From: Nitrospiraceae bacterium | Lineage (GTDB): Bacteria; Nitrospirota; Nitrospiria; Nitrospirales; Nitrospiraceae | Length of the DNA stretch: 64,000 nucleotides | Reading direction: 5' to 3' | Assembly (NCBI GenBank): GCA_050246315.1 | Contig: JBFWWG010000009.1 | Location: forward strand, 64,001 to 128,000 | In this document: one piece after another, positions 41,452 through 60,322 of the stretch | Layout: the number at the start of each line of letters is the position of its first letter | Numbering within the stretch: position 1 is the stretch's first letter | The notes under the pieces: model-generated | What the model saw: only the letters and a program-made list of their open reading frames with translations | Database searches by the model: none | What the model was told of the DNA's origin: nothing | Program-made: the position numbers and the translations under genes

Positions 41452-41481
41452 GCCTTGGCAGGCGGAGAGGAGACCGTTTCC

Positions 41482-42111: not shown

Positions 42112-42134
42112 GGATATTCGGGAGTCGATGACAT

Positions 42135-42860
42135 ATGCAGACCTTTCTCGCAGAAGTCGATCGAATCACCGACCTCACGCATGACGTGCGCGAGGTCGAG
42201 TTGCGGCTGCTGGAGCCCGAAGCCATCGATTTTCAACCGGGACAGTTCATCTCCTTTGACATCGTGGTGACGGGCAAGCCTAGGCCGGTGACGAGAGCCT
42301 ATTCGATCGCGTCTCCGCCCAGCCGGCCGAGACAGATTACGCTGCTGTTCAACCGGGTAGATCATGGCCCTGGGTCGAGTTATCTGTTTTCACTCAATGG
42401 GGGAGATCGAGTGCACTTCAAGGGGGCGGCCGGGACTTTCCGTCTGAGGGACGACGGGACACGCGACCTCTTGTTTGTCGCCACGGGTACGGGCATTGCG
42501 CCGCTGCGGGCGATGATCTGGACGAAGTTGGAGCAAGGGAGTCCCTGCGCCATCACGCTCTTTTGGGGCTTGCGGAGCCAGCGGGACCTCTACTATCAGC
42601 AGGAACTGACCGATCTCTCCAAGAGCTTTAGCCGGTTCCGGTACGTGACGACCCTCTCCAAGCCCGAACCGGGCTGGGCCGGCTCGACCGGACGAGTGAC
42701 CGAACTCGTCAGGGAGCAGATTCAATCGGTGTCCAACCTGGCCGTCTATCTGTGCGGCAACGGCGGCATGATCAAGGAAGTGACGGCGGTGCTGAACGCG
42801 AAAGGCCTGTGTCCGATCTATCGCGAAAAGTGGTATGACGAAGAGCCGGATGCGGGTTGA
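42135..42860 (+). CDS. FAD/NAD(P)-binding oxidoreductase (FNR-like)
   Basis: FQPGQF, RAYSIAS, ATGTGIAP, YLCG. Confidence 0.9.
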   Translation: MQTFLAEVDRITDLTHDVREVELRLLEPEAIDFQPGQFISFDIVVTGKPRPVTRAYSIASPPSRPRQITLLFNRVDHGPGSSYLFSLNGGDRVHFKGAAGTFRLRDDGTRDLLFVATGTGIAPLRAMIWTKLEQGSPCAITLFWGLRSQRDLYYQQELTDLSKSFSRFRYVTTLSKPEPGWAGSTGRVTELVREQIQSVSNLAVYLCGNGGMIKEVTAVLNAKGLCPIYREKWYDEEPDAG

Positions 42861-44194: not shown

Positions 44195-47100
44195 TTACTC
44201 GATCTCTCCGGCTGGAGCGGGCTGCGCGTCGGGCCGCAGGTCAGGCGGTCGGGCCGTCCCGCCTGCATCCGTCTTCTCGCCGGTCTCCTCCCGCATCGTG
44301 CGCGGGAATCGTTCTTCCAAGATCAGATAGAGCGGCGGGATCAGAAATAGCGTCAGCACCGTCGAGACGCTGAGCCCCCCGATCACGGAACGGGCCAGCG
44401 GCGCGTTGGTCTCTCCGCCCGTGCCCCATCCGAGCGCCATCGGCAACAGGCCGAAGACCGTAGCGAGCGAGGTCATGAGAATCGGCCGGAGCCTGGTGCG
44501 GGCCGCGCGAACCACGGCGTCGCGCAGGGCCATCCCTCGCCGGCGAAGTACGTTGGTATAGTCCACCAGCAGGACGCCGTTCGAGACCACGATTCCGAGC
44601 ATCATGATCACGCCCATGAACGAGGTGGTGGAGATCGTCGTCTTGGTCAGGAACAGCATGAGGATGACGCCGGGAAATCCCATCGGCACGGAAAACATGA
44701 TAATGAAGGGATCGATCAAGGATTTGAACTGCGCCGCCATGACCATGTACACGAGCAGGAGCGCCAGGATCGTCGCGAACCACAGGCCCGCGAACGTTTC
44801 ACGCTGCTGCTGAATCTGTCCCGCCAATCGCACGGTGAAACCCGGCGGCAGTTGAAGCTCGGCGAATCTCTCCTCCAAGGCCTGCGCGATGGCCCCAAGG
44901 TCCTGGTGGATCGGGTTGGCGGTGATGTGGATGACCCGCTGGAAGTATTTGCGCTCGATCTTGACGGGGCCGGCATTAAACCGGATCGAGGCGAGATTCT
45001 TGAGCAGCACCGGCTCCCCCGCCTTGGTGGCCAACAGCACGTTCTCCAGATCGGCGAGGTCTTTGCGATGCCGCTCGTCCAGCCAGGCGCTGATGTAATA
45101 TTCGTTTCCGGTCTCCGGATCGGTGAAGATGATCGGATCCGTCTGGCCGTTGCCGTTGAGGGAATAGAGGACGGTGTTGGCCACGTCGGCTTCGCTGATG
45201 CCGAGCAGCGCCGCCTTCTCACGATCGACGTCGATGTCGAGCTCCGGATAATTCTCTTCGCGGCTGACTTCGATGTCTGCCAGCCACCGCCCGTCGCCGA
45301 TCTCATGCATCATCGACTCGACCTGCTTGATGACCTTTCGCGCTTTCTCGAATTCATAGCCGTAGATCTCGACATCCACCGCCTTCTGCGATCCGAAGCT
45401 CGTCACGCGCTTGACGATGCCGCCCGGGTCGAAGAACATCGCGACGCCCGGAAAGAGCTTGAGCACCTTCGGACGGATGTCGTTCATGATCTGGACCTGC
45501 GAGCGGGCTCGGCGGTCCGGTGAAACGAGATACACCTGAATCAAAGAGGTGTGGGGGCCGGTGTTGGGGTTGAAGAGGGAGGAGCGTCCCTGCTGGAGGA
45601 TGCCGGTGCTGGATACGATCGTTTCCAGCTCGTCGGGCCGGATCTGTTCGCGGAGGACGCGTTCGATTTCTGCAACCTGCTGTTCCGTTTTTTCGACCCG
45701 TTGGCCGACGGGGGCGCGCACGACGATGCGGAACTGGCTTTCATCCGTCACCGAGATGAATTCCGATCCAATGAGCGGGACCAGCAACAGTGACGCGCAG
45801 AAGAAGACCAGCACCGAGAGCAGGACCGGCGTCCGGTGTCGGAGGACCCACAAGAGGCTCGCCTGGTAGCCCGCGTCGAGCGAGTCATACCTGCGCCGGG
45901 ACCAGTCCTTGAATCGTGTCCAGGTCCCCGATTCTTCGCCGCCCTGCGTCCTCTCAGGCTTGAGGAACTTATAGCAGAGGGCGGGCGTGATGGTCCGGGA
46001 GACGAAGAAGGAGGTAAACAGGGAGATTGCGATCGTGACGGTCAGGGGCACGAGCAGCAGTTTGCCGATGCCGACCACGAAAAAGATCGGGAGAAAGACC
46101 ACAACCGTCGTGACGGTCGAGGCGAAGATCGGCATGGCCACTTCGCGGGCGGCTTCAAGGATCGCCATCCACCGATTCGGGGTCGTATTCAAATGCCGTT
46201 GGATGTTCTCCAACTCCACGATCGAATCGTCTACCAGCCGGCCGATGCCCAGGGCGAGTCCGCCGAGCGTAAAAATGTTCAAGGTCTGTCCGGAAAAATA
46301 CATGACGACGAATGTCACCATGATCGAGAGCGGAATGGCCACCGACACGATGAGGGTCGCCGTCAGGTTGCGCAGGAAGACGAGAATGACGGCTGCGGCC
46401 AGGACCGATCCGTGCAACGCCTGCTCGGCCAGGTTCGCGATGGATTGGCGAATATAGACGGACTGGTCGAAGGAAATCCCCAGTTGTACCCCGGGCGGGA
46501 TGCCGATCATCTTCGTCAACTGGGTCCGGAGGCTGTCCACAACCTCGACCGTGTTGGCGATCGGCTGTTTGTTGACGCGCAGATAGACCGCGCGGTTCCC
46601 GTCGGTTCGGACAATATTGGTTTGAATGTCGGAGGAGTCGGTGACGGTCCCCAGGTCCCGCACCCGCACGGGATTGCCGCGGGGGTCGAGCTTGACGATC
46701 ACCTCGTTGATCGGCTCGGCCGATTTGAACTGGTTGTTGGTGAAGACGTTGTAATCCAGGTTGCCGGCTTTCAGATCGCCGGACGGCAGGATCAGGTTCG
46801 ACGCTTTGACGGCGTTGACGACGTCAAGAATCGAAAGCCCTCTCGCGTGGAGCAGGCCCGGATCGAGATTGATGTTGAGTTGGCGGATTTTCCCCCCTTC
46901 GACCGTCGCGGCCGCGACGTTGTTGATTTGCTCGATCTGCGGGGCAATCGTATTGAACGCCAAGTCGTAGAGCGCGCGTTCGTCGAGATTGTCGCTCGAG
47001 ACCGTCACGAACGCGACGGGAATGTTGGAGACGTCGAACTTGACGACGAAGGGTTGGAGCACGCCCGGCGGCAACTGGTTCAGGATCTGTGTGATCCGCT

Positions 47101-47428
47101 GCATGACTTCCATCTGGCCGACGTTGATGTCGGCGCCCCAATTGAACCAGACCTGCACGGCCCCGATGCCGTATTTGGCGAAAGACTCCACGTGCTCGAC
47201 GTTGGAGGCGGAACTGACTGCCTTTTCGATCTGGTAGACGACGCTTTTTTCGATGTCGATCGGAGGCGCGCCCTTATAGACGACGCCCACGAACACGACC
47301 GGCACTTGAATGTTGGGGAACAGATCGACCGGCAGCCGCTGGAGCGACACGACGCCGAGCACGACCATGGCCAGCGAAAGCATCAGAAAACCGATGCGAT
47401 TGCGAAGGGCGAGAAGAGTCAGCCACAT
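44195..47428 (-). CDS. RND efflux transporter permease (AcrB/MdtC family)
   Basis: 1077 aa; LPVDLFP, GRLVDDSIVELENI, RLRPILMT. Confidence 0.95.
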   Translation of the reverse strand: MWLTLLALRNRIGFLMLSLAMVVLGVVSLQRLPVDLFPNIQVPVVFVGVVYKGAPPIDIEKSVVYQIEKAVSSASNVEHVESFAKYGIGAVQVWFNWGADINVGQMEVMQRITQILNQLPPGVLQPFVVKFDVSNIPVAFVTVSSDNLDERALYDLAFNTIAPQIEQINNVAAATVEGGKIRQLNINLDPGLLHARGLSILDVVNAVKASNLILPSGDLKAGNLDYNVFTNNQFKSAEPINEVIVKLDPRGNPVRVRDLGTVTDSSDIQTNIVRTDGNRAVYLRVNKQPIANTVEVVDSLRTQLTKMIGIPPGVQLGISFDQSVYIRQSIANLAEQALHGSVLAAAVILVFLRNLTATLIVSVAIPLSIMVTFVVMYFSGQTLNIFTLGGLALGIGRLVDDSIVELENIQRHLNTTPNRWMAILEAAREVAMPIFASTVTTVVVFLPIFFVVGIGKLLLVPLTVTIAISLFTSFFVSRTITPALCYKFLKPERTQGGEESGTWTRFKDWSRRRYDSLDAGYQASLLWVLRHRTPVLLSVLVFFCASLLLVPLIGSEFISVTDESQFRIVVRAPVGQRVEKTEQQVAEIERVLREQIRPDELETIVSSTGILQQGRSSLFNPNTGPHTSLIQVYLVSPDRRARSQVQIMNDIRPKVLKLFPGVAMFFDPGGIVKRVTSFGSQKAVDVEIYGYEFEKARKVIKQVESMMHEIGDGRWLADIEVSREENYPELDIDVDREKAALLGISEADVANTVLYSLNGNGQTDPIIFTDPETGNEYYISAWLDERHRKDLADLENVLLATKAGEPVLLKNLASIRFNAGPVKIERKYFQRVIHITANPIHQDLGAIAQALEERFAELQLPPGFTVRLAGQIQQQRETFAGLWFATILALLLVYMVMAAQFKSLIDPFIIMFSVPMGFPGVILMLFLTKTTISTTSFMGVIMMLGIVVSNGVLLVDYTNVLRRRGMALRDAVVRAARTRLRPILMTSLATVFGLLPMALGWGTGGETNAPLARSVIGGLSVSTVLTLFLIPPLYLILEERFPRTMREETGEKTDAGGTARPPDLRPDAQPAPAGEIE

Positions 47429-47444
47429 GGGTTAGCCGGAAAAT

Positions 47445-47636
47445 AGTGCTAAGTGCTGAGGACTGAGTGCTGAGTAACGCCCGAAAACAGTGCTGGGTGC
47501 TGGGTTGCGACCCAAGGCAGTGCTGAGTGCTGAGGACTCAGTACTGAGGCCAAGGTCATCCGGAATGTCCCCGTCGGTGATGTGCTCATTCCTTCCGTCC
47601 ACCGACTCGACTCAGCACCGAGCACTCAGGATTCAG
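47445..47636. repeat. inverted heptamer arrays (AGTGCTG / CAGCACT)
   Basis: three AGTGCTG clusters at 47445-47548 and an inverted arm at 47604-47636 overlapping the MFP stop. Confidence 0.85.
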
Positions 47637-48801
47637 AAAGCGGCTGCGCCTGCACCGGCTGGTCCTCGTGGACCAGATCTTTTCCCGAGACGATGACCGC
47701 TTCGTCGCCGGAGAGACCCTTGGTGACTTCGATCCGGTTGCCGTTCCGCGCGCCCAATTCCACCGAGACGCGGTGCGCCTTGCCTCCCTGAACAACGTAA
47801 ACGTACTGCAACTCCTCCAACCTGGTGACGGCGTCGAGCGGGATTTGGATCGCGTCGGCATGCTGTCCCACGATCACCTCCACCCTGGCGAACATGCCGC
47901 CCTTAAGCGCGAGGTCGGGATTGGGGAGGTCCACCTCCACCGTCATCGTGCGGGTATTGCGGTTCAGTGCCTGGACGATGCGGGTCACGGCGCCGTGGAA
48001 CACCCGGTCCGGATAGGCTTCCGCTCTGATTTCTGCCGGCTGGCCGATCTGAATCAACGGCACGTCCTTCTCGACGACTTCGATCATCGTGCGGACGGTC
48101 GCGATCTCGTGCAAACTCAAGATGCCTCGCGACATGGTCGAGGTGCTGGCGGTCGAGCCGGTCACGTAGGCCCCAGGATCGAGGTTGCGTTCGGCGACAT
48201 AGCCCGCGAAAGGAGCACGGATGTAGGAATAGGCCAGGTTGGTGTCCGCCTGCTGCAAGGCTACCTCCATCTGTTTGACCTGCGCCTCCAGCGATTCCAT
48301 CAGCGCGATGGCCGCGTCGTAATTGACCTGGGCCGTGTCCAGGTCCTGCTGGGACACGAATTGATCCGAGATGAGCGCGTTCATGCGATCCAGGGTCAAC
48401 TTGGCATTGTGCACGGCGGCTCGCTGCTGGGTGACCTTGGCTCGTGCGGCGGCCAGGTTGGCCTTAGCCTGGTTGACGGCATGGACATAGTCCGTGTGGT
48501 CGATCTCGATCAACAATTGGTTGGCTTTGACGAAGTCGCCTTTGTCCACGTGTAGCTTGGCGATGTAGCCATCGACGCGGGAAAAGACCTGTACGGTCTG
48601 GTTCGGGGTGATGTCCGCGGTGTAACTCATGCGAAGCTCGACGGCGCCTCTGATCGGAATCGCCGTGCCCACCGTGATCGTGCGGCTTTTTCGGGCGTCC
48701 GGTTTGGCCCCGGTGCTGAGCCGGAACACGACCAGACCCAGGACGGTGACAAAGATGATCACGCCCAGCACGACGATGGGATGGCGGGTGAGGCGGCTCA
48801 C
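47626..48801 (-). CDS. RND efflux periplasmic adaptor (MFP)
   Basis: N-terminal TM, lipoyl halves (VDKGDFVK, IRAPFAG), TRTM, GMFARV. Confidence 0.93.
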   Translation of the reverse strand: MSRLTRHPIVVLGVIIFVTVLGLVVFRLSTGAKPDARKSRTITVGTAIPIRGAVELRMSYTADITPNQTVQVFSRVDGYIAKLHVDKGDFVKANQLLIEIDHTDYVHAVNQAKANLAAARAKVTQQRAAVHNAKLTLDRMNALISDQFVSQQDLDTAQVNYDAAIALMESLEAQVKQMEVALQQADTNLAYSYIRAPFAGYVAERNLDPGAYVTGSTASTSTMSRGILSLHEIATVRTMIEVVEKDVPLIQIGQPAEIRAEAYPDRVFHGAVTRIVQALNRNTRTMTVEVDLPNPDLALKGGMFARVEVIVGQHADAIQIPLDAVTRLEELQYVYVVQGGKAHRVSVELGARNGNRIEVTKGLSGDEAVIVSGKDLVHEDQPVQAQPLSES

Positions 48802-49493
48802 GGGGTAGGAGGCGCGCTCCTTTCAGACGGACTCTTCTGACGGGCAGGCCTGTTGCGCACGAGACCGCCCAAAAACAACCGCACATATTCCTGGACGACC
48901 TCCTCGTGCGTCAGATGCAGCGGAATGCCGAGGATGTCGTGCAGGATCCGGTGGTGCACGATGATGCCGAAGAAGGCCCGGGCGGTCAGTTGAGGATCGA
49001 CGGCACGGAAGGCGCCGTCGGCGATCCGCCGGCTGATGTGTCCAGCCAGGAGATCGTAGAACAGACGGTACTGTTGCCGGAAGAACATCGACGATAATTC
49101 GTGCCCTTCCAGAGCACTGAACAGCAGCAGACGCAGCATCGTGGGGTCCGCCCCTTTGCGGATGCGAAATCCGGCCAACAGGGTGAAGAGGCCCTCGTCG
49201 TCTCGGTCGGCCGAGGCCTTTTCCAGCGCGACGCGCAATTCCGAGTATTGAGCCTTTTCGGCGAGGATGGCGCTGTAGAGGGCCTGCTTGGTCGGGAAGT
49301 GCTTGAAGAGCAGCGCTTCGCTCACGCCGGCCGCCTTGGCGATGTCCTTGGTCGTGGTCCCGCTGAAGCCTTTGGCGGCAAAGAGGCACGCGGCGGCGCC
49401 GATCAAACCTGCCTGCCGGTCTCGCGCCGACGCGCGACCGGTGCCGTTGTCGCGAGCGGTCGACTTGCGAGGCCTTGTGGCGACCCTGCTCAT
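48798..49493 (-). CDS. TetR/AcrR family regulator
   Basis: HTH FAAKGFSGTTTKDIAKAAGVSEALLFKHFPTK. Confidence 0.93.
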   Translation of the reverse strand: MSRVATRPRKSTARDNGTGRASARDRQAGLIGAAACLFAAKGFSGTTTKDIAKAAGVSEALLFKHFPTKQALYSAILAEKAQYSELRVALEKASADRDDEGLFTLLAGFRIRKGADPTMLRLLLFSALEGHELSSMFFRQQYRLFYDLLAGHISRRIADGAFRAVDPQLTARAFFGIIVHHRILHDILGIPLHLTHEEVVQEYVRLFLGGLVRNRPARQKSPSERSAPPTP

Positions 49494-49494
49494 G

Positions 49495-49514
49495 GTAAGT
49501 AAGTGCTCACTCAC
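49495..49514. promoter_or_regulatory. candidate TetR operator
   Basis: pseudo-palindrome GTAAGTAAGTGCTCACTCAC directly upstream of the tetR start. Confidence 0.7.
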
Positions 49515-49746
49515 CCGCGAGCGTATCATGCGCTTCGTTCCAGCGACAAGATCTGAGGATATCCCGGATCGACGTCACGGTGAGACAAGGAACAAGGGCG
49601 GGCGCCTACCTCCGGCTGAGTTGATCGCAAGACCGGCATTGACAGGGACCGAGGCAATCTGTAGTTTTTGCGCCGGTCGCTGGTTGAGACGGCGCAACGT
49701 TGGTCCGTTGACGCTTCAGCCAAAAAGGTCAAACAAGGAGATGCCC

Positions 49747-50415: not shown

Positions 50416-51199
50416 TTACAGTAGCTGGACGATACCGGCCGAGAACGTCCTCAGATCTTCGAGCCGAGCTTGAATGATGTCGTAGATCTCATCGTAGTCG
50501 ATCTTCCAATAGACATGAATCAGGAGATTTCGGAATCGCGCCATCTGCCGAAGGCGATCGGCAAGGTCATGGGAAATAATATCGGTCTGCTCTAGCCCAC
50601 ATTATTCATGATGGTTCGTCACGAAACCGCGAAGTCGCCATGCGAGACGGGCGCGTGGAGATGCGAGGGAGGGAGGCATACTTGAAACAGTATGTTGACC
50701 GACCGAGCAGCGAGCCCGCCCGCCATACCGCACTTCGTGTGAGCCGGCGGCTCATCGGGCATAGTCCCTCTATACGAAGCTTCGCTTGGACCGTCGGCTA
50801 TTCATCGTATTTTCGTAGCTGCGCCGACGGAGAAGCACCCTACGGGCATGTCCCTTCCTCAGTGTTTGATACGCCGCCGGAGAAATCCCTTCGACCGGCC
50901 GGGCTTGTCGTAGCGGCGAATGCCCGGTTGCAGTAGAAGCATTCATGAATAATGTGGGCTAGCGCCGTGAAGCAGGCTGCATACTCTTCCGGAACACGCT
51001 GTAGCTGCTTGGCGGATACGTGAAAGCAGAGGGCCAACGCCGCTTCGATGGCGACCAGCAGTCGGTAACAGGCAATATCCAGCTTGTCTTGGTCCGCCAG
51101 GAATTGTTCACGAGAGCCAGAACGGAATTGTTCCAGCCGCGAAATCGCTGCCTCAATCTCTTCGCAGCGTGACCGAACCAGATCCGGGTTCAGCCTCAT
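50416..51199 (-). pseudogene. hepT: HepT/DUF86 HEPN RNase toxin interrupted by MITE
   Basis: removing 367 bp restores a 138-aa ORF (...ACFTAL|EQTDIISHDLADRLRQMARFRNLLIHVYWKID...) with the RxxxxH motif. Confidence 0.92.
50592..50962 (-). mobile_element. ~370-bp MITE, intact copy (coordinates include both CTAG)
   Basis: perfect 20-bp inverted ends CTAGCCCACATTATTCATGA / TCATGAATAATGTGGGCTAG; inserted at a CTAG inside hepT; no transposase. Confidence 0.95.
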
Positions 51200-51645
51200 C
51201 CTGCGAACGCCTCTGCCGTGCTCCGCCGGAGGAGAGGGGCCAAGTCGAGGTATCGCCGGGCGACATCTTCCAAGGTGGCTGAAAGAAACCTCTCGTCCCG
51301 GCACAGGAGGAGGGATCCTCGGAGCACATGGTAGACGAAGGTCACCGGAGCCTCGTTGAGCACGCGGATGTCGACCGGCAATCCGAGCATTGAAGACAGC
51401 CGATCTTCCAGTTCAGCGGCGATTGACGAACTCCGTCCCGACGCCGACGGATGGAGATAGAGCCCAACGTCCACATCGTGGAACATCGTCTCGCTTAAAC
51501 AGGAACCATACAGATAGGCTACAGTCACCTCCGACTCCTTATCCAATTCGCGACTCAAGCCGGCCTGCAACTGAGCGAGCCGCTCCGTCGTCATCGGATA
51601 GGCCCGAGCGAACCTCGCACCCGTATCCTGCTCGTGGCGGTTCAT
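51196..51645 (-). CDS. mntA: MNT minimal nucleotidyltransferase antitoxin
   Basis: AYLYGS...HDVDVG, VDIRVLNEAP; ATGA overlap with hepT; promoter TTGTTC-N17-TATCAT 6 nt upstream. Confidence 0.88.
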   Translation of the reverse strand: MNRHEQDTGARFARAYPMTTERLAQLQAGLSRELDKESEVTVAYLYGSCLSETMFHDVDVGLYLHPSASGRSSSIAAELEDRLSSMLGLPVDIRVLNEAPVTFVYHVLRGSLLLCRDERFLSATLEDVARRYLDLAPLLRRSTAEAFAG

Positions 51646-51724
51646 GTGGCGATGATACAACGCTGACGAGATGCGAACAAGCAACGTCCGGGGAGGCGAA
51701 CTCTGGAGGAGGGGAAGCGGGGGA

Positions 51725-53404
51725 TTACTGGCGCAGGTTGGCCCAGGCCTTCTGATACTCCTCGAAGGAATCGACCTCCATCCAGCCTTTGAAGATCGGG
51801 ACGGCCTGGACGCTGTGGCCTGCATCGATGAGGTCCTGAACCATGTCGGTGAAGGAAGCTTTGGCCAGACTCGGCGCTTCGTGGAACGGCCGGTCGGCGC
51901 GGGAGGACAAGGCGTTGCGGTAGAGGCCGGTCATCGCCTGGATGCCCTGTTCGGAAAACATCGCGAGGCCGATGAACTCCGCATGAGCCTGGTCGTGCGG
52001 CACGTGCTGCCCGATCTTGACGATCCGGTGGTCTTCTTCCGGCATCACGAACCGTGACAGGTAGCCGCGGCCCGGCGCCTGCTCGAAGGTCACGAGGTCC
52101 GGATTGATGTGTGGCGCTCTGGCCCCCTGCTGTTGGTGATCGTACCAGGCCAAGTCCACCACCAGCGAAATGTCCGCGGGGCTCTTCAGCAATTTTTCCA
52201 GGATCGCCAGGTCGAAGATGATGTCTCCGTAGAGCACGATGGTCCGCCCGCGCATTTCGTGCTCGGCGCAGAAGAGCGAGAAGAGCTCGCCTGTCTCTTC
52301 GTATCGGTCGTTATCGTAGTAGCGGACGTTCGGAAGCGTGATCGCCTCTTTTTTATAGCCCCGAATCAGGGCGATTTCCTTGATGTCGCAATCGTTCAAG
52401 GCCGCGATCTGGCGCTCCAGGATCGTCTTGCCCTTGATGTCCAGCAGGCATTTGGGCCGGTCTTCGATCAGCGGCAGCAGTTGCTTCTCGAATCCGGCGG
52501 CGGCAATGATGGCGGTGATCTTCTCGCTGCCCACCGGGAGGAATTTCTTTTCGTCCTGCTCCATTTGCGGGACGCCGACGATCTCGTAGACTTCCTTCAG
52601 CTTGACGATCCGGTCGTTGACCGAACCGGGTCTGGTATCCTGCTTGATTACGTCGAGCGCGTCGCGCATGGCCCTGATGCTGGCCCGCACCATCTGATTC
52701 GCGTAAATCACGATTTTGAACCCCGCCTCTTCCAGTTCCGCCGCCGTGACGCCGTCGAAAATCGTCGGGACTACGACGAGCGGGACCTGTCCCGACCAGC
52801 GTGCGGCTACGGTTCGGAGTTCGTCGAATGTCGGGGACTTGGAGTGGATCAGCACGGCGTCGGCGCCGGCGTCGGCGTAGGCTTGCGCCCGCTTTAGGGC
52901 CTCGTCCTGCCCCCAGCCCGCGATGAGCGCTTCCGTTCTGGCGATGACCATGAATTCGGGAATGGTCTGCGCGGCCTTGGCAGCCTGAATCTTTCCGCAA
53001 TGTTCCTCAACCGGGATAAGTTCTCGACGGACCCCTGCATAGAAACTACAGCGCTTGGGGTAGACGTTGTCTTCGATGCAGATGGCCGCCACGCCCGCGC
53101 GTTCCCGGTCGTTCACCGTGCGCATGACGTTCAGCGCGTTGCCGTAGCCGGTATCGCAGTCGGCAATGATCGGAATCGACACGGCCTCGGCGATGTTGCG
53201 CTCCACCTCAAGCTGTTCGCTCGAGGTGATGAAGCTGGCGTCGGGAATGCATTTCAAGGAGGCGGAGATCGCAAAGCCGCTGGCCCAGATGGCGTCGAAG
53301 CCCGCGCGTTCGATCAGCTTGGCGCTCAACGCGTCCTGGGCGCCGACGGCCTTGATGATGCCCGGTTGCTTGAGTAGGGTACGGAGTTTGACCGCGGGAT
53401 GCAT
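51725..53404 (-). CDS. pepM: PEP mutase-like enzyme fused to a C-terminal nucleotidyltransferase domain
   Basis: WASGF, ADCDTGYG, EDNVYPKRCS, ARTEALIAG, GADAVLIHSK, VVVPT, IYANQ; C-terminal PKCLLDIKGK, YGDIIF, WMEVD. Confidence 0.8.
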   Translation of the reverse strand: MHPAVKLRTLLKQPGIIKAVGAQDALSAKLIERAGFDAIWASGFAISASLKCIPDASFITSSEQLEVERNIAEAVSIPIIADCDTGYGNALNVMRTVNDRERAGVAAICIEDNVYPKRCSFYAGVRRELIPVEEHCGKIQAAKAAQTIPEFMVIARTEALIAGWGQDEALKRAQAYADAGADAVLIHSKSPTFDELRTVAARWSGQVPLVVVPTIFDGVTAAELEEAGFKIVIYANQMVRASIRAMRDALDVIKQDTRPGSVNDRIVKLKEVYEIVGVPQMEQDEKKFLPVGSEKITAIIAAAGFEKQLLPLIEDRPKCLLDIKGKTILERQIAALNDCDIKEIALIRGYKKEAITLPNVRYYDNDRYEETGELFSLFCAEHEMRGRTIVLYGDIIFDLAILEKLLKSPADISLVVDLAWYDHQQQGARAPHINPDLVTFEQAPGRGYLSRFVMPEEDHRIVKIGQHVPHDQAHAEFIGLAMFSEQGIQAMTGLYRNALSSRADRPFHEAPSLAKASFTDMVQDLIDAGHSVQAVPIFKGWMEVDSFEEYQKAWANLRQ

Positions 53405-53474: not shown

Positions 53475-54032
53475 TCAATTGCGGGGCGTGGCGTCGCTCC
53501 TCGGGTAGAACCGCTGAGCCAAACTCTGGCTCTCGTAAAAGATAATACCCTGCTGGGTCTGCGGGTTGAAGGTCAGCATGATGTCGGTCTCGGGTCCCTT
53601 CCAGTTGAACGTCTGGATCGAGATGTTTGCGATCTGACCGGGTGTCCGGTCCAGGAGGCCGAACCTTGATTCAAGGTAGGCGACGATGCTCTTGTGGGCC
53701 TCCAGGCTCTGGTACCGTATGGTCACACGGGAAAACTTCCCGTCGATGGCGACGAATTTCATCGACTCGACCGGATGTCCGCCGAACGAAGGCGGACCGG
53801 ATTCCCGCTCATAGGTGACGATCCGGGGCGAGCGATCAACGACATGAAGATCGTCGGATTCCTTCAACTCGGCCCCCCAAGGAATGCCCTCGAAATCGCG
53901 CGGATCGTTGGTCATGGTCACCGCCTGCGCGGCCAGGAACGACCAGAGCGAGGCGACCAGCGCCAGACCCAGGCCCGCGCGCCACCGTCGCCTCGGACGC
54001 TGCGTAGGATGTACGTGGTTCGGGAGTGCCAC
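53475..54032 (-). CDS. exported hypothetical protein, paralog 1
   Basis: signal peptide; MTNDPRDFEGIPWG, FSRVTIRY, TPGQ, FNWKGPET. Confidence 0.8.
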   Translation of the reverse strand: MALPNHVHPTQRPRRRWRAGLGLALVASLWSFLAAQAVTMTNDPRDFEGIPWGAELKESDDLHVVDRSPRIVTYERESGPPSFGGHPVESMKFVAIDGKFSRVTIRYQSLEAHKSIVAYLESRFGLLDRTPGQIANISIQTFNWKGPETDIMLTFNPQTQQGIIFYESQSLAQRFYPRSDATPRN

Positions 54033-54053: not shown

Positions 54054-54587
54054 CTACTCGCCCGAATCGGTCAACGCATCGTTGAATCGAGGAGACAACA
54101 CGCGGCTTTCGATAAAGACGAACCCGCGTCCGCTCTGCGCTTGGAAGGTGACGTTGATCTCCGTTTCCGGTCCTCTCCAATTAAACTGTTGGTTGAGCCC
54201 GCGGACCATCTGTCCCGGAGTCTTGTCGAGGGCGCCGTATTGCTCCTCCAGGTACGCCATCACCTGCTGATGGGCGTCATTCCCGCGGTAGCGGATCGTC
54301 ACGCGCGCAAAACGATCTTGCCAGGCGGTGAAGGTGACGCTCTCCACAGGAATGGTTCCCAGCAATGGAGGGCCGTTCTTGCACTGATAGTCGGCCACGT
54401 CCTTGCTCGAATAGGTCTGCTGCACATCCGACCGGCCGGCCAGCGCATCGCCCCAACGGATGCCGAGAAAGCTGCCGGGGTCGTTGGTCATCTCCGCAGC
54501 CCCAGCCGGGACGACGAGGAGGACGAGCCAGGCGAGTCCCAAGAGAACCGAGATGCGCTGAGCCCCTGTGTGTGAGGCCTGTAGCAT
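54054..54587 (-). CDS. exported hypothetical protein, paralog 2 (start uncertain)
   Basis: signal peptide; MTNDPGSFLGIRWG, FARVTIRY, TPGQ, FNWRGPET. Confidence 0.8.
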   Translation of the reverse strand: MLQASHTGAQRISVLLGLAWLVLLVVPAGAAEMTNDPGSFLGIRWGDALAGRSDVQQTYSSKDVADYQCKNGPPLLGTIPVESVTFTAWQDRFARVTIRYRGNDAHQQVMAYLEEQYGALDKTPGQMVRGLNQQFNWRGPETEINVTFQAQSGRGFVFIESRVLSPRFNDALTDSGE

Positions 54588-54663
54588 GGCGAACGCTAGC
54601 ACGGTCGGCCCGATCCGCGCAACGGACCGACGGGTGTGGAGGAGCACGGCGTAGGCATGACGA

Positions 54664-54693
54664 TTGAGAATCGTCAAAGGGCTTGGCTATAAT
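54664..54693 (+). promoter_or_regulatory. sigma70 promoter of the decarboxylase operon
   Basis: TTGAGA-N18-TATAAT. Confidence 0.7.
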
Positions 54694-54721
54694 CCGTTTT
54701 CTTTATCGATGGCGAGGGGAC

Positions 54722-55237
54722 ATGACCGACGGCAACCAAATGATCGAGAGCGATGTCTTCGTCCAGGCGCTCCAAGAGATCGGAATCGAATTTTTTACCG
54801 GTGTGCCGGACTCTATTCTCGGCGGAATCATCGAAACCCTGATGGAGCGGCGCTTGTATGTGCCGGCCACGCGTGAGGATGAAGCGCTGGCCATGGCGGC
54901 CGGGGCTTATATGGCGGGGAAGGTCCCGGCCGTCTTGATGCAGAACTCAGGGCTGGGGACCTCGCTGAACACGCTGATCTCGTTGAATCTGATCTATCAG
55001 CAGCCCTGCGTGTTGATCGTGTCATGGCGCGGCTTTCAGGGGAAGGATGCGCCGGAGCATCTGGTGATGGGGCAAACCATGCCGCAGCTCCTGGATTTGA
55101 TGAAGATACCCCACCGGACGCTGTCCGCCGGCACATTTGCCGACGACCTGCGTTGGACGGCCGAAACCTTCATGAAGCAGCAGATCCCCCTGGCCCTGAT
55201 CATCAAGAAGGGCGTCATCAAGAGTTTGCATCCGTGA
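54722..55237 (+). CDS. phosphonopyruvate/sulfopyruvate decarboxylase alpha subunit
   Basis: FFTGVPDS, REDEA, LMQNSGLG, SWRG..GKDAPEH..MG. Confidence 0.9.
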   Translation: MTDGNQMIESDVFVQALQEIGIEFFTGVPDSILGGIIETLMERRLYVPATREDEALAMAAGAYMAGKVPAVLMQNSGLGTSLNTLISLNLIYQQPCVLIVSWRGFQGKDAPEHLVMGQTMPQLLDLMKIPHRTLSAGTFADDLRWTAETFMKQQIPLALIIKKGVIKSLHP

Positions 55238-55264
55238 GTGGGATCACAGAATGAGAGACCACCT

Positions 55265-55849
55265 ATGACACTCAGACCGGAACAAGGGGCCATGCAGAGC
55301 CGCGCGCGAGCCATGGAAGCCTTGCTAGAACTGCTGACCGATCAACCGGTCATTATCTGCAACGGATTTCCCTCCCGCGAGGCCTTCACGATCGCAGACC
55401 GGCCCACACACTTCTACATGATCGGGTCCATGGGCGTTGCCGCCGCCATCGGGTTGGGTGTGGCCCTCGCGAAGCCCCAGAAAAAGGTCGTCGTGTTCGA
55501 CGGCGACGGCAACGTTCTGATGGGAATGGGCACACTCGCGACGGTCGGCGCGACCAGACCGAAAAATCTTGTCCATGTCGTGTTCGACAACGAAGTCTAC
55601 GGCAGTACGGGCAATCAGCCGACTTATTCTCGGCTGGTCCGGCTGGATCTCGTGGCCAAGGCCGCGGGCTATGTCCATGTCGAGCGGGTAATCGAACGCG
55701 AGGACTTGGTGTATGAGTTCAAGGAGATGCTCGGTAAAGACGGGCCGAGCTTCCTGCTCGTGAAGGTCAACGAATGGGTGGAGGACGTCGGACGGGTTCT
55801 GCACGATCCTCCCGAGATCACGCAACGGTTCAAGAAGGCGATCGCATGA
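55265..55849 (+). CDS. phosphonopyruvate/sulfopyruvate decarboxylase beta subunit (TPP-binding)
   Basis: GFPSRE, FYMIGSMG, DGDG...DN, STGNQPT. Confidence 0.9.
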   Translation: MTLRPEQGAMQSRARAMEALLELLTDQPVIICNGFPSREAFTIADRPTHFYMIGSMGVAAAIGLGVALAKPQKKVVVFDGDGNVLMGMGTLATVGATRPKNLVHVVFDNEVYGSTGNQPTYSRLVRLDLVAKAAGYVHVERVIEREDLVYEFKEMLGKDGPSFLLVKVNEWVEDVGRVLHDPPEITQRFKKAIA

Positions 55850-55950
55850 CGTCAATCGTCAAGCGTCATTCGTCAACAGTAAGGCGAGATCATTATGGTG
55901 CTGATTCCAGCGGTCACCCTCGATTGACGAGTGACCAATGACGATTGACG
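55850..55950. repeat. inverted heptamer arrays (CGTCAAT / ATTGACG)
   Basis: cgtcaat-cgtcaag-cgtcatt-cgtcaac, 45-nt spacer, attgacg-agtgacc-aatgacg-attgacg. Confidence 0.85.
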
Positions 55951-55960
55951 GAGGTTTCCT

Positions 55961-57055
55961 GTGATCCTACTGAATCCCGGTCCAGTCAACGTGTCCGAAC
56001 GAGTCCGGCAGGCCCTGCATCGGCCGGATCTGTGCCACCGCGAGCGCGAGTTCACCGACCTGTTGCATCGTATCCAGGACAAGCTACTGAAGGCATTTGT
56101 GCCGGGCGCGGAGCACGACTACACCGCAGCCATCATCACGGGGTCCGGAACCTCGGCGGTGGAGGCCGCGATCGGATCGGCTCTCCCGCAAGGCAAGCGT
56201 TCTATGGTGATCAATAACGGCGTGTACGGCGACCGCATGTCGCAGATGACGCTGACCCACCGGATGGGTGTCCCGGACTTGAAGCTTGATTGGGGAAAGC
56301 GCCCCGACCCGGAGGTTGTGAGACTCGCCCTGCGGCAGCATCAAGAAGTCCACCTGGTGGCGATGGTACACCACGAGACGACGCTGGGACTGGTCAACCC
56401 GGCGAAGGAGATCGCCGACGTGGTTGACAGTCAGAACCGCGTGTTCATGCTCGATGCCGTCAGCAGCTTGGCCGGTGACCCATTGGATATCGCCGGCTCC
56501 CACATCTATCTGGTGGCCGGCACTTCGGGAAAATGCATCCAAGGGTTCCCGGGCGTCTCGTTCGTCCTCATCCGGCGCGGATTCTTGCAGCGCATGCGGA
56601 GCTACCCTCGGAAATCCTGGTACCTGCACCTGCCCCACTATCTGGACGATGAAGGTCGGCCGACGGTGCCCTTCACCCCCGCGGTGCAGGTCTATTATGC
56701 GTTCGACGAGGCCCTGTCCGAGCTGTTGGAGGAAGGGGTGCCGAAGCGGATCGAGCGGTATAAGCGTGCCGCGAAGCTGATTCGAGACCGGATGAAGACG
56801 CTCGGTCTCAAACCGGTGGTGCCGCCGGAGTTTCAGTCAAACACGCTGACCGCCTACCACCTGCCGGAGGGCCTGAGCTACGATCTGTTACATGACCGCC
56901 TCAAAGAGCGGGGCTACGTGATCTATGCCGGTCAAGGCCAGCTCGAGTCCAAGATTTTCCGCGTGGCCAACATGGGGGTCTTGTCGGCACAAGACCTGGA
57001 AGGGTTTCTGGCCGCCTTTCAGGAGGTGCTGGAACAGGCAGCGGTGTCTCGTTGA
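55961..57055 (+). CDS. 2-aminoethylphosphonate aminotransferase (class V PLP)
   Basis: LLNPGPV, DLCHRE, GSGT, HHETT.G..NP, DAVSS, KCIQG.PG, PFTP, VIYAGQ, FRVANMG. Confidence 0.88.
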   Translation: MILLNPGPVNVSERVRQALHRPDLCHREREFTDLLHRIQDKLLKAFVPGAEHDYTAAIITGSGTSAVEAAIGSALPQGKRSMVINNGVYGDRMSQMTLTHRMGVPDLKLDWGKRPDPEVVRLALRQHQEVHLVAMVHHETTLGLVNPAKEIADVVDSQNRVFMLDAVSSLAGDPLDIAGSHIYLVAGTSGKCIQGFPGVSFVLIRRGFLQRMRSYPRKSWYLHLPHYLDDEGRPTVPFTPAVQVYYAFDEALSELLEEGVPKRIERYKRAAKLIRDRMKTLGLKPVVPPEFQSNTLTAYHLPEGLSYDLLHDRLKERGYVIYAGQGQLESKIFRVANMGVLSAQDLEGFLAAFQEVLEQAAVSR

Positions 57056-57774
57056 AGGCCGTCATCCTCGCCGCCGGTATCGGCAAGCGGCTCTGGGACA
57101 TTACGCAGCACCGACCCAAATGTTTGATCGAGTTCGCCGGCAAGAGCCTTCTCGTTCGCCATCTGGAACACCTGGCCTCCCAGGGTGTGCAGCGGGCCAC
57201 CGTGGTCGTCGGCTACAAGCAGGAGATGATTCGGAACGCCATTGGAACAGTTCATGCGGGAGTGGATCTGACGTATCTCGTCAATGACCAGTATCACCGC
57301 GGGAGCATCTCCTCGCTGTGGTTGGCGCGAACGGAGTTCGACGACGATGCGATCGTGATGGATGCCGACGTGTTGTACCATCGAGATATCATGAAGCGGC
57401 TGATCCACTCGCCCTATGCGAACTGTTTGTTAATGGACGAGACGGTCGTCCAGCAGGGCGAAGAGTGCATGGTGGTCGTGCGGGGAGGGCGGGTGATTGC
57501 GCTCACGAAGCGGGTCCCTTCCGTGTATGATTATGCGGGGGAAGGCGTCGGTTTTCTCAAGGTTGGCCGCCAGGACGCGGAGCACCTGGTCGGCTCGCTG
57601 CGGGCGCACATCGATCGAGGTGCCTGGGAGATGGAATATGAAGACGGGCTGCTCGAATTTTTTGACCGGGTCCGCGTGGGCCACGAAAAAATCGGTGGGC
57701 TGCCCTGGACCGAGATCGACTTCCCGGAGGACGTGACCCGTGCGGAACGGGAAATCCTGCCGAAGCTGGACTAA
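57052..57774 (+). CDS. LicC/PntC-like cytidylyltransferase
   Basis: TTG start overlapping the upstream stop; ILAAGIGKRL, PKCLI, DADV, GEGVGF, WTEIDFPED. Confidence 0.85.
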   Translation: MKAVILAAGIGKRLWDITQHRPKCLIEFAGKSLLVRHLEHLASQGVQRATVVVGYKQEMIRNAIGTVHAGVDLTYLVNDQYHRGSISSLWLARTEFDDDAIVMDADVLYHRDIMKRLIHSPYANCLLMDETVVQQGEECMVVVRGGRVIALTKRVPSVYDYAGEGVGFLKVGRQDAEHLVGSLRAHIDRGAWEMEYEDGLLEFFDRVRVGHEKIGGLPWTEIDFPEDVTRAEREILPKLD

Positions 57775-57828
57775 GCCACTCGGTCGCGTTAGAGTGCCGA
57801 AAGACAGGCCGACCCTGGATACGGAACG

Positions 57829-59328
57829 ATGAGTCAGAGTGCGCTGCAACGCTTTGCCCAGACCCGAGAACTGACCTCCGCGATTGTGGTGACGGCGCGC
57901 AACGTCTTCACCTCCACGCCCGTCTCAGTCCACACCGGCATCAGCCCGCTCACCCGAATCGCCGGCGTGACGATCTTTCAGCGCGGCATCCTGACCCTGC
58001 AGCGGGCCGGCGTGAACCAGATTTTTGTGTTGGCGGGTGACGAAGCGGAAACGCTCAAAGCGGTCGTACGCGACGGGCCGCCGATCACGGCGGGCATCCG
58101 GTGGATTCCGGTCCGGGAGTTCCCGCTCGACGACCCCCGGACATGGGAAACACTGGCGGCCGACGCCAAAGGCGCCTGCCTCGTGATTGGGCCGCAGGCC
58201 GCTTTTTCGCGAAACCTGATCGAAACGTTGCGTGGCAAGGGGCCGATCGAGGACCTCCTGCTCGTGTTGCAGCCCGACGAGCGCCATCGGACCGCGCCTG
58301 GTCGTTCCGATCGTGCCGATCGCGTGTTGCCGACGAAACGGGATCGTCTGGCTCGATTGGCTGCCATCGGGTTGGGCGGAGAACGAGAGATGCGCGAAGC
58401 CCGTTCCGGACGCGTCGCGGCCGAGGTACTCGTTCTGCCCGCCGGTCTACTTTCAAACGGACATTCTTTCGTCGATGCCCTGCTTGCTCAATCAGGGGAG
58501 GAACACCGAGGGGATGGCGAGCCGCTCCTGTCCCGACTCGTCGGGTTGGCAGCGGCAGAACGACGCATTCAGGTTGTTGAAGCGGCGCGGGATGCCAACC
58601 TCTGGGCGAGGGACATTCACGACGAACGGGACGCGTCGGCGGTCGAGCGGGATCTCTATCGCTCCTTTAAGAACCATTCCGAAGGGTTCATCGATCGGTA
58701 TTTTAATCGGAAGCTTTCTCCATTCTTCACCAAGCTCTTCTTAAAGCTGAAACTGAGCCCCAACGCGGTCACGGTACTGGCCACCCTGATCGGGCTGGCC
58801 GGCGCGGCTTCCTTCGGGATGGGGACATACGAGGCCGGTCTGCTGGGAGCCCTCCTGTTTCAATTGGCCGCGGTGATCGACTGTTGCGACGGCGAGGTGG
58901 CGAGGCTGACGTTCACAGAGTCCCCGTTGGGAGCCAAGCTCGATCTCGCTCTCGACAACGTGGTGCACATGGCGGTATTTGCCGGCATCGCCTACGGCGC
59001 CTATGAGACGCAGGATGCGAGCGGGGAGGCGTGGCTGTACCTGGCACTTGGCGCGGTGGCGGTCGTCTCCAATGCCCTGGCCTTCTGGCTGGTCACAAGG
59101 CTGACTGCGAAGCCGAGCGGGGCCATCCCGGGCTCAACCGCGCGGGCCAGATGGAAGGATTTTATTCTCAAGAACATCGCGACACGTGATTTTTCCATGA
59201 TCGTGCTGCTCTTCGCCGTGATCGGTCGTCTGGATTGGTTCCTGCTCTTGGCGGTCATCGGATCGGCCTTCTTCGGTCTGGTGCTGACCTGGCTGGTTTT
59301 CTCGACCCGCTCCGCTCGTGCTTCTTAA
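57829..59328 (+). CDS. CDP-alcohol phosphotransferase with degenerate N-terminal NTP-transferase-like domain
   Basis: SPNAVT; DCCDGEVAR-x7-GAKLDLALD CAPT signature; C-terminal TM helices. Confidence 0.88.
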   Translation: MSQSALQRFAQTRELTSAIVVTARNVFTSTPVSVHTGISPLTRIAGVTIFQRGILTLQRAGVNQIFVLAGDEAETLKAVVRDGPPITAGIRWIPVREFPLDDPRTWETLAADAKGACLVIGPQAAFSRNLIETLRGKGPIEDLLLVLQPDERHRTAPGRSDRADRVLPTKRDRLARLAAIGLGGEREMREARSGRVAAEVLVLPAGLLSNGHSFVDALLAQSGEEHRGDGEPLLSRLVGLAAAERRIQVVEAARDANLWARDIHDERDASAVERDLYRSFKNHSEGFIDRYFNRKLSPFFTKLFLKLKLSPNAVTVLATLIGLAGAASFGMGTYEAGLLGALLFQLAAVIDCCDGEVARLTFTESPLGAKLDLALDNVVHMAVFAGIAYGAYETQDASGEAWLYLALGAVAVVSNALAFWLVTRLTAKPSGAIPGSTARARWKDFILKNIATRDFSMIVLLFAVIGRLDWFLLLAVIGSAFFGLVLTWLVFSTRSARAS

Positions 59329-60322
59329 AATTACCCTCCTCGCCGTCGGGACCCTCACCCTGACGGCCCTCGTGTGGCACATTGGGCCGACCCGCATCCT
59401 GGATGCCGCCGGGCAAGTCGGGCCGCTCGGCCTGCTACTGGTGTTACTCCCGTCGCTGGTCATGTACCTGCTCGAAGCCTACGGTTGGAAATTGACCATG
59501 GGGCCCTATGCCGGGGCCGTTTCCTTTCCGCACCTGTTGGCCATCCGGACGGCCGGTGAAGTCGTCAACATGACCACGCCGACCGCCTATGTAGGCGGCG
59601 AGCCGCTCAAAGCCTATCTGCTCAAACGTGCAGAGGTCCCGTTCGTCGACGGATTGGCCTCGGTCGTGCTGGCGAAGACCCTGATGACGATCGCGCAGGT
59701 ACTGTTCATCCTGTTAGGGCTGGTGATCGCGTTCTGGCTGCTCGGATCGGAAGGGTCCTCCGGGCAGATGGTGATGGCCTCCATCGTCAGTGTCGGCATC
59801 TTGGCGTTCGGCGTCGCCGGCTTCATCGCAGTGCAGCGATGGGGCCTATTCACCGGTGCGCTTGGGCTGTTGCGGAGAGTCAATCTCCGAGTGGCCTACC
59901 TCGAAGCTCGGGAAAGCAAGCTGCGCGAACTGGACCGGACGATCCTGAATTTCTACGCCAAGGATCGGCGGAATTTTCTCTGCTCCACGGGATTGTATTT
60001 CGGCGGCTGGCTCGCTGAGGCCGTGGAAGTCTACGTGATGCTGGCCTGCCTCGGCCTTCCCGTGACGGCTCTCGCGGCGCTCGCCATCGGATCGCTGTCG
60101 GCCTTCATCAAGGGCGGGACCTTCTTCATTCCCGGGAGCTTGGGCGCACAGGATGGAGGCAATCTCCTCCTGGTCACGGCGTTCGGCTACAGCGACGTGG
60201 CCGGCATCACCTTCGCTCTGCTGCGACGCTTCCGCGAGATCGTCTGGATCGGCATCGGTCTGGTATGCCTGGCCCTGTTGGATGGGCGGACGGTGGCAAG
60301 TCGAGGCGATCAATCAGGCTGA
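59318..60322 (+). CDS. lysylphosphatidylglycerol-synthase TM / flippase-like protein
   Basis: multi-TM; PTAYVGGEPLKAYLL, IPGSLGAQD, LLRR. Confidence 0.85.
   Translation: MLLKITLLAVGTLTLTALVWHIGPTRILDAAGQVGPLGLLLVLLPSLVMYLLEAYGWKLTMGPYAGAVSFPHLLAIRTAGEVVNMTTPTAYVGGEPLKAYLLKRAEVPFVDGLASVVLAKTLMTIAQVLFILLGLVIAFWLLGSEGSSGQMVMASIVSVGILAFGVAGFIAVQRWGLFTGALGLLRRVNLRVAYLEARESKLRELDRTILNFYAKDRRNFLCSTGLYFGGWLAEAVEVYVMLACLGLPVTALAALAIGSLSAFIKGGTFFIPGSLGAQDGGNLLLVTAFGYSDVAGITFALLRRFREIVWIGIGLVCLALLDGRTVASRGDQSG

Follow-up and report, generated by a model that had tools for sequence, protein, structure and literature searches.

The closest described relatives of the protein reported here are the canonical phosphoenolpyruvate (PEP) mutases (PepM, EC 5.4.2.9), with structures from Mytilus (1m1b/1pym) and Streptomyces platensis (5unc), the phosphonopyruvate hydrolases (PalA; 2dua), and the PrpB/isocitrate lyase branch of the same superfamily. 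Surveys of phosphonate producers mostly define PepM by the gating-loop motif EDKX5NS or by the cut-off of the family model TIGR02320 (PMC6697681, PMC8942020, PMC12723261, 10.1101/2020.11.04.368217). We analyzed a 64,000-nucleotide stretch of a Nitrospiraceae genome (assembly GCA_050246315.1, contig JBFWWG010000009.1, positions 64,001 to 128,000; hereafter the window) that encodes a protein breaking this motif at two positions, with asparagine in place of Lys116 and cysteine in place of Asn122 (the Cys-loop protein). We consider it likely that this protein, from a distinct, non-canonical clade, functions as a PEP mutase that is coupled to a split decarboxylase and feeds a lipid or envelope pathway that proceeds through a cytidine monophosphate (CMP) conjugate of 2-aminoethylphosphonate (AEP).

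A PEP mutase-like protein with a cysteine in its gating loop

The host open reading frame (ORF), at 51725-53404 on the minus strand, encodes a 559-aa fusion of a PEP mutase-like domain and a PntC-type nucleotidyltransferase. Its loop is encoded by GAA GAC AAC GTC TAC CCC AAG CGC TGT AGT. The first-pass annotation had picked out these ten codons and their translation, both of which are present in the window, at 53044-53073 and with no strand given; the coordinates were one base off. The parts of the gene are as follows.

53045-53074, minus strand: codons of the gating loop EDNVYPKRCS (residues 111-120), with N113 at the position of PepM Lys116 and C119 at that of PepM Asn122
52520-53404, minus strand: PEP mutase-like domain, residues 1-295 of the fusion (PF13714, TIGR02320, PDB 5unc, AlphaFold (AF2) model)
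51725-52519, minus strand: C-terminal PntC/LicC-type nucleotidyltransferase domain, residues 296-559, and the stop codon (PF12804, LicC 1jyk)

Pfam assigns residues 7-251 of the 559-aa protein to PEP_mutase (PF13714, E 5.9e-57), so the loop motif is read in the frame of a genuine gene and is no random match. The C-terminal domain matches the MobA-like nucleotidyltransferases (PF12804, E 8.5e-8, 33 bits versus a Pfam cut-off of 27) and, among solved structures, LicC (1jyk, E 5.7e-10), placing it in the PF12804/LicC-like fold. It thus belongs to the same domain family as the PntC/LicC cytidylyltransferases and shares with the canonical Ppm-PntC proteins the fusion of such a domain to the C terminus of a mutase, an arrangement reported for most Ppm (PMC6697681). 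The likeness is distant in sequence: the C-terminal domain shares no more than ~27-31% of its residues with its counterparts in canonical Nitrospira fusions and with the neighboring free-standing PntC, and the Cys-loop protein no more than 38-42% with the canonical fusions found in sister Nitrospira. JGI names the Cys-loop proteins PEP phosphomutase, and NCBI only "isocitrate lyase/PEP mutase family protein".

Aligned by HMMER to solved structures, and without gaps, the loop pairs with EDKRFPKVNS in PepM 5unc, EDKLFPKTNS in Mytilus PepM 1m1b, and EDKTFPKDTS in phosphonopyruvate hydrolase 2dua. Among the Mg-binding and catalytic residues of PepM, whose roles in the Mytilus enzyme we take from a review (PMC7916636), only Lys116 (Asn113 here) and Asn122 (Cys119 here) are changed. 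The others, D55, D82, D84, E111, K117, S120, R156, and H187, correspond to Mytilus D58, D85, D87, E114, K120, S123, R159, and H190 and are invariant or nearly so across the Cys-loop clade described below; the protein therefore has the same Mg ligands as canonical PepM and keeps the equivalents of Arg159, His190, Lys120, and Ser123. When the loop closes, Cys119 may contact the phosphoryl group in the way that Asn122 does in PepM.

The best matches among solved structures are 5unc (S. platensis PepM, E 2e-83), 2dua (2.5e-68), and 1m1b (1.4e-61), with identity to canonical PepM reaching ~50-55%. An AF2 model built on a 16-row alignment has a mean pLDDT of 91.3, with lower confidence only around the loop. 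It superposes on 5unc with a template modeling (TM) score of 0.96 and a root mean square deviation of 1.0 Å, on Mytilus PepM with 0.94, on the hydrolase with 0.92, and on lyases with 0.87-0.88. Together with the PF13714 match, the model predicts the PEP mutase/isocitrate lyase alpha/beta-barrel fold, the same as that of canonical PepM (TM 0.94-0.96).

In NCBIfam the protein scores highest as PepM (TIGR02320, 278 bits), then as phosphonopyruvate hydrolase (257.2), PrpB (205.6), and carboxyphosphonoenolpyruvate mutase (150), all under the respective cut-offs. It belongs to the same superfamily branch as the hydrolase (E 2.5e-68, TM 0.92), and both deviate from PepM at position 122. The hydrolase, however, keeps EDK, has Thr at 122, and is catabolic, whereas the Cys-loop protein has Cys at that position, scores below the TIGR02321 cut-off of 374.4 bits, and is encoded in a biosynthetic gene context. 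With the PrpB/isocitrate lyase branch (loop K[RK]CGH) it has in common PK-R-C with the Cys in the same column, and also F44, Y122, and R127. Unlike the lyases, to which it is ~36-40% identical, it has neither EDQ nor G-H after the Cys; its KRC is followed by S-F, and its 205.6 bits compare with a TIGR02317 cut-off of 354.4.

The first-pass annotation called the KRCS loop a hybrid and noted a catalytic Cys at the Asn position in the lyase branch. The label is accurate: in a 133-row alignment, 4/4 lyase-type rows have C in the Cys column and 81/81 canonical rows have N. The lyase state is also seen in PrpB of the same genome, which reads EDQELPKRCGH.

A large and conserved clade

The Cys-loop form is a large conserved clade and no one-off. 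The loop EDNV[YF]PKRCS is present in all 121 proteins of at least 79% identity (the query and 120 homologs, among the matches listed). The best 80 loci, out of 484 relatives found in genomes, are all from Nitrospira, and the loop is kept in 80/80; the Cys codon is TGC in 68 and TGT in 12, and this synonymous variation without amino-acid change indicates selection on the loop itself. The N-terminal domain is 79-100% conserved across Nitrospira. Beyond close relatives, ED[NS]xxPK[RKV]CS occurs in 23 of the best 150 matches from a search of 1.84 billion cluster representatives. A profile of the non-Nitrospira members found metagenome loci of which 80/80 carry the Cys loop, as do its 120/120 top matches. 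The source labels of the profile matches name Vicinamibacterales/Acidobacteriota, Planctomycetaceae, Myxococcales, and metagenome-assembled genomes of Deltaproteobacteria; phylum names beyond Nitrospira derive from these labels alone, as the metagenome contigs carry no taxonomy.

The first-pass annotation had proposed a phylogeny, and we built a tree of 133 rows, rooted on the lyase-type rows. The 16 Cys-loop rows form a group of their own in the better-supported topology. A quick free search scattered them over several groups; constraining them to one clade (three runs) gave a tree better by 86.9 log-likelihood units (p-AU 0.93), so a single Cys-loop clade is the better description, and paraphyly was set aside. 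Five columns set this clade apart from canonical PepM: F44, N113, C119, Y122, and R127. Four of these states (F44, C119, Y122, and R127) are shared with the lyase outgroup.

Given the loss of two signature residues, the mutase-like domain might be catalytically dead and serve as a scaffold for the fused nucleotidyltransferase, with phosphonate precursors taken up from outside the cell. The nucleotidyltransferase half is a common partner in canonical-type fusions as well (also PMC6697681). We hold this to be highly improbable: the metal ligands and catalytic residues are all invariant, the N-terminal domain is conserved across Nitrospira, and the Cys codon varies only synonymously, a sign that the loop is under selection. 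A phosphonopyruvate decarboxylase (Ppd) encoded nearby would, moreover, still need phosphonopyruvate. To our knowledge phosphonopyruvate is not a nutrient.

The main alternative to the favored reading is that the enzyme carries out the same net reaction with a chemical role for the cysteine. Canonical PepM is thought to use dissociative, non-covalent transfer; here Cys119 would act as a nucleophile, and an S-phosphocysteine would carry the phosphoryl group between O2 and C3 of the pyruvate skeleton. The Cys is invariant in every clade member read and occupies the loop position through which PepM contacts the phosphoryl group, and F44, C119, Y122, and R127 are common to the lyase outgroup, whose Cys is chemically active. 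However, the thiol may equally be a simple hydrogen-bond donor, and the remaining PepM active site, sufficient for the canonical mechanism, is intact. We regard covalent transfer as unlikely.

In a broader form of this idea, the clade would be a surviving intermediate between C-C lyases and P-C mutases that makes phosphonopyruvate with an ancestral gating loop (F44, KRC, Y122, R127) and with a Cys chemically active in phosphoryl transfer. The invariant Cys could then be an S-phosphocysteine carrier or a redox-sensitive switch. This intermediate status is speculative, and we give it a small though real chance; if true, PEP mutase catalysis would exist in two mechanistic forms, and Asn122 would be dispensable for C-P bond formation.

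Two groups of related sequences were also seen. One locus (L226, G262:C9:8414-11370) holds a 315-aa ORF whose first ~115 residues are almost identical to the Nitrospira Cys-loop protein while the rest diverges; its loop reads IEDTLQPARFGH, and it reflects either gene recombination or a chimeric assembly. Other PepM-like proteins break EDK but keep Asn122, reading EDNxxPKRNS or EDQxxPKRNS (P0164, P0202, P0223, and many EDN..PKRNS rows), and some of these are fused to an AMP-binding adenylation domain or a D-2-hydroxyacid dehydrogenase. They are further candidates that motif filters would drop.

The Cys-loop protein replaces canonical PepM in Nitrospiraceae

Six genes run divergently from the Cys-loop gene, at 54683-60322 on the plus strand, and two small genes lie between the two transcription units.

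53475-54032 and 54054-54677, minus strand: two paralogous small secreted proteins with no family match
54683-55237, plus strand: alpha half of a split Ppd-like thiamine diphosphate (ThDP) enzyme, PpdA (TIGR03297 132 bits, TIGR03845 113 bits, both below cut-offs; PF02776)
55238-55849, plus strand: beta half of the split Ppd-like ThDP enzyme, PpdB (TIGR03846 188 bits, TIGR03297 181 bits, both below cut-offs; PF02775)
55961-57055, plus strand: AEP aminotransferase-like protein, AEPT (TIGR03301 342.5 bits versus a cut-off of 360.8)
57052-57774, plus strand: second, free-standing PntC-like nucleotidyltransferase (PF00483, PF12804)
57829-59328, plus strand: CDP-alcohol phosphatidyltransferase-family membrane protein (PF01066; partial matches to NF041135 and NF040950)
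59318-60322, plus strand: HpnL/LPG_synthase_TM flippase-like membrane protein (PF03706; TIGR03476 164 bits)

The phosphonate-type cluster that had been proposed around the gene is thus borne out, with split Ppd-like, AEPT-like, PntC-like, and CDP-alcohol transferase genes adjoining it. These partners are common to canonical PepM, and the gene set is that of the "Burkholderiales_CDP-OH" core described in PMC8942020.

The genome that contains the window is 100% complete in 30 contigs and encodes one other superfamily member only, the PrpB mentioned above, in a prpD-prpB-prpC operon; it therefore has no canonical PepM. We compared this with two larger samples. The first comprised 201 genomes of the phylum; matches at E 1e-40 or better were found in 42 of them, and six of these carry the Cys-loop variant. 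In 24/24 other loci read, EDKLFPKTNS is present in a ~550-aa fusion. Among 244 Nitrospiraceae genomes at least 90% complete, 225 had a match. The Cys-loop variant, at 77-100% identity, is present in 83/244 (81/242 without the unpublished genomes G229 and G232). In ~141/244 the best match lies in the range of canonical fusions (E 1e-62 to 1e-68, 38-42% identity), and one genome (G228) has a weak match only. Fifteen variant genomes had more than one match; G232 was left out, and in 13 of the 14 read the extra matches are lyase-type K[RK]CGH proteins or the chimeric ORF of G262, which has no recognizable loop. In seven single-contig variant genomes the Cys-loop variant is the only match.

Genomes of the canonical type carry an orthologous PpdA-PpdB-AEPT-PntC-CDP-OH-HpnL cluster at the same locus, with no mutase gene there; their canonical fusion sits in other contexts. 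The cluster genes are 43-78% identical to those of the window (PpdB 72-78%, AEPT 63-71%). In the common locus order, AcrB-HlyD-(TetR) is followed by the two secreted-protein genes and PpdA, and in variant genomes the Cys-loop gene is inserted precisely at the junction of the efflux operon with the secreted-protein genes. Judged by this comparison of gene content, either mutase type serves a single orthologous downstream pathway, and this is our strongest reason for thinking that phosphonopyruvate is supplied by the Cys-loop protein. It is from this replacement of canonical PepM, the one and indirect line of support, that we infer interconversion of PEP and phosphonopyruvate by the Cys-loop protein.

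The first-pass annotation left a choice between a PepM clade missed by motif filters and different chemistry. In the latter case the protein could be a hydrolase or lyase, such as a phosphonopyruvate hydrolase-like enzyme or a C-C lyase, or could supply a non-phosphonate 2-oxoacid (e.g., a sulfonate) to a ComDE-type decarboxylase, and the cluster would make no phosphonates in variant genomes. This would fit the lyase-type KRC in the loop, the placement outside the canonical clade, the failure to reach any equivalog cut-off (PepM 278, PPH 257, PrpB 206 bits), and decarboxylase halves that match sulfopyruvate decarboxylase models as well. Yet the downstream cluster is orthologous to that of sister genomes with canonical PepM, and either mutase type occurs in place of the other. 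If the protein were a hydrolase, the Ppd/AEPT pathway, which is intact and expressed, would have no substrate, and the lyase G-H after the Cys is gone while PepM Ser123, Arg159, and His190 are kept. We know of no reaction of this superfamily that gives sulfopyruvate. A sulfonate pathway based on the ComDE-like halves was rejected as the principal explanation, as canonical PepM and the Cys-loop form interchange beside the same cluster. We judge different chemistry quite unlikely; a truly different reaction, like a dead domain, fits the comparative data poorly. The comparison favors a PepM clade missed by motif filters: the clade is conserved, fails EDKX5NS, and stands in for PepM in Nitrospiraceae.

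Linkage to a split phosphonopyruvate decarboxylase-like enzyme

The Cys-loop gene is linked to genes for an enzyme that would consume phosphonopyruvate. In the 80 Nitrospira loci described above, both Ppd halves are present in 61/61 that have at least 3.5 kb of upstream sequence, and all six cluster genes in 42/42 with at least 8 kb. In metagenome loci of other lineages, Ppd halves were found in 45/80, many of the Ppd-bearing contigs being short. Twenty-two metagenome loci have flanks of at least 3 kb on either side, and 17 of them have Ppd halves, usually 3-400 bp downstream and on the same strand; the same 22 include 11 with the transaminase, 18 with a second nucleotidyltransferase, and 10 with a CDP-alcohol transferase. 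In one case the linkage is a fusion: the 502-aa protein P0128 joins a Cys-loop domain to a Ppd-alpha-like part (Pfam TPP_enzyme_N, 25.5 bits, just under the cut-off).

P0128 and P0274-P0278 make up six near-identical metagenome sequences with this Cys-loop/Ppd-alpha-like ThDP fusion (~500 aa). The alpha/beta ORF split resembles archaeal sulfopyruvate decarboxylase ComDE and is kept in both canonical-type and variant-type Nitrospirales. Where a one-piece Ppd would exceed the TIGR03297 cut-off of 312.5 bits, the two ORFs of the window reach 132 and 181 bits, and surveys that rely on Ppd would likewise overlook them; their Ppd function is suggested by context. One canonical-type Nitrospira (loci L036, G152:C1:3401000-3420900, and L234) has a full-length, one-piece Ppd of 486.6 bits, above the cut-off, beside the canonical PepM fusion; this genome also holds the split decarboxylase cluster elsewhere and thus has two decarboxylase systems.

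Predicted pathway and expression

We predict that the Cys-loop enzyme (loop ED-N-xx-PK-R-C-S, fused to a cytidylyltransferase) converts PEP to phosphonopyruvate, and that the adjacent split decarboxylase would draw this unfavorable equilibrium on to phosphonoacetaldehyde. The transaminase could convert phosphonoacetaldehyde to AEP, which the fused and free nucleotidyltransferases may activate as a CMP conjugate. The CDP-alcohol transferase and the HpnL-like protein would then place it on a membrane lipid or envelope acceptor.

Proteins of the pathway are made in at least one relative. The Nitrospira moscoviensis ortholog (P0112; 559 aa, computed mass 61.752 kDa, loop EDNVYPKRCS) matches the entry "pepM, A0A0K2G853, 61.752 kDa, 559 aa" in Table S1 of PMC9381531. 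In that study, A0A0K2G853 was detected in 6/6 samples, with spectral counts of 12, 12, and 12 without nitrite and 44, 41, and 43 with nitrite, and was 5.4-fold higher with nitrite (adjusted p 1.4e-5); PhnW and both decarboxylase halves (as ComD and ComE) were likewise detected. For the window itself, a 1688-nt RNA-library contig identical to 51718-53386 spans the Cys-loop gene, separate contigs cover the divergent operon, and libraries of two other studies hold parts of the stretch. Long X9 RNA-library contigs differ from the stretch by ~3.5% and may derive from a relative, or from DNA in the library. Because contigs cannot prove transcription, the RNA libraries are only a weak addition.

Several observations weigh against a working PEP mutase. 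The protein scores 278 bits (280.4 in the genome scan) against the TIGR02320 cut-off of 319.55, and both it and every clade member read lack the Lys116 and Asn122 of EDKX5NS. All 16 Cys-loop rows of the tree fall outside the 89-row clade (SH-aLRT 97) that unites 81 EDK...NS rows with hydrolase-like rows, and thus outside the motif-bearing PepM clade. Lyases use the same Cys as a general acid, and a thiol at position 119 could protonate the pyruvate enolate, wasting PEP. Sulfopyruvate decarboxylase models match the decarboxylase halves just as well, and in N. moscoviensis the halves bear that name. Five of the 22 well-flanked metagenome loci have no nearby Ppd; four of the Ppd-less metagenome loci were annotated and show unrelated contexts, two of them near a CDP-alcohol transferase. 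One genome, G209, has both the Cys-loop form and a canonical PepM fusion (L210, L215), the sole genome seen with both; with 700 contigs and 3% contamination, it is possibly a mixed bin. Position 122 is credited with deciding between mutase (Asn) and hydrolase (Thr) (review PMC7916636). Finally, we found no report of phosphonates or their synthesis in Nitrospira in the open-access literature and bioRxiv.

Other genes of the region

The two secreted proteins between the transcription units (~185-207 aa) have no Pfam or NCBIfam match. In all Nitrospiraceae loci compared the pair adjoins PpdA, whether the Cys-loop gene is there or not, and in the one sister-family locus (L233) it has no match; it may belong to the phosphonate system. 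The cluster is flanked by a resistance-nodulation-division (RND) efflux operon at 44195-49529 on the minus strand (AcrB-like protein of 1077 aa, HlyD-type adaptor, TetR regulator). This operon keeps its position across Nitrospira and shows where the Cys-loop gene was inserted. Directly 3' of the mutase gene, at 50840-51825 on the minus strand, is a type VII toxin-antitoxin pair, in which the toxin is a HepT-like RNase and the antitoxin an MntA-like nucleotidyltransferase. About 100 bases of the long MntA ORF extend into the 3' end of the mutase gene, so MntA probably starts at an internal site. Further away, at 40654-42860 on the plus strand, lie, in this order, genes for a chlorite-dismutase-family protein, a nitroreductase, and an FAD/NAD ferredoxin-reductase-type protein.

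Implications for phosphonate surveys and for Nitrospira

We found no paper on a Cys-loop PepM in the open-access literature and bioRxiv. We rate the finding as new in the sense of a Cys-loop variant of a known PepM type, with consequences for phosphonate surveys and an enzymological question. The first-pass annotation named EDKX5NS as the signature used to call PepM, and the surveys bear this out (PMC6697681, PMC8942020, and PMC12723261 apply that filter). Rice et al. (PMC6697681) dropped 22 fused PF13714 proteins without the motif as presumed non-Ppm, and the Cys-loop protein would belong to the class so dropped. There is partial precedent for a looser rule: Acker et al. (preprint 10.1101/2020.11.04.368217) accepted up to two motif deviations beside a TIGR03297 Ppd, although the split decarboxylase here falls under that cut-off. 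Since the Cys-loop clade fails both EDKX5NS and TIGR02320 yet replaces PepM, such inventories probably undercount producers. The undercount would touch about one third of the sampled Nitrospiraceae (83/244) as well as lineages of Acidobacteriota, Planctomycetes, and Myxococcota.

For the enzyme family, the clade amounts to an Asn122-to-Cys exchange made by nature, at the residue held to choose between mutase and hydrolase, and it may show a route from lyase to mutase. As for the organisms, Nitrospira play a key part in nitrification in soils, waters, and wastewater plants. If they do carry phosphonates on lipids or on the envelope, this would bear on phosphorus cycling and on the biology of the cell surface.

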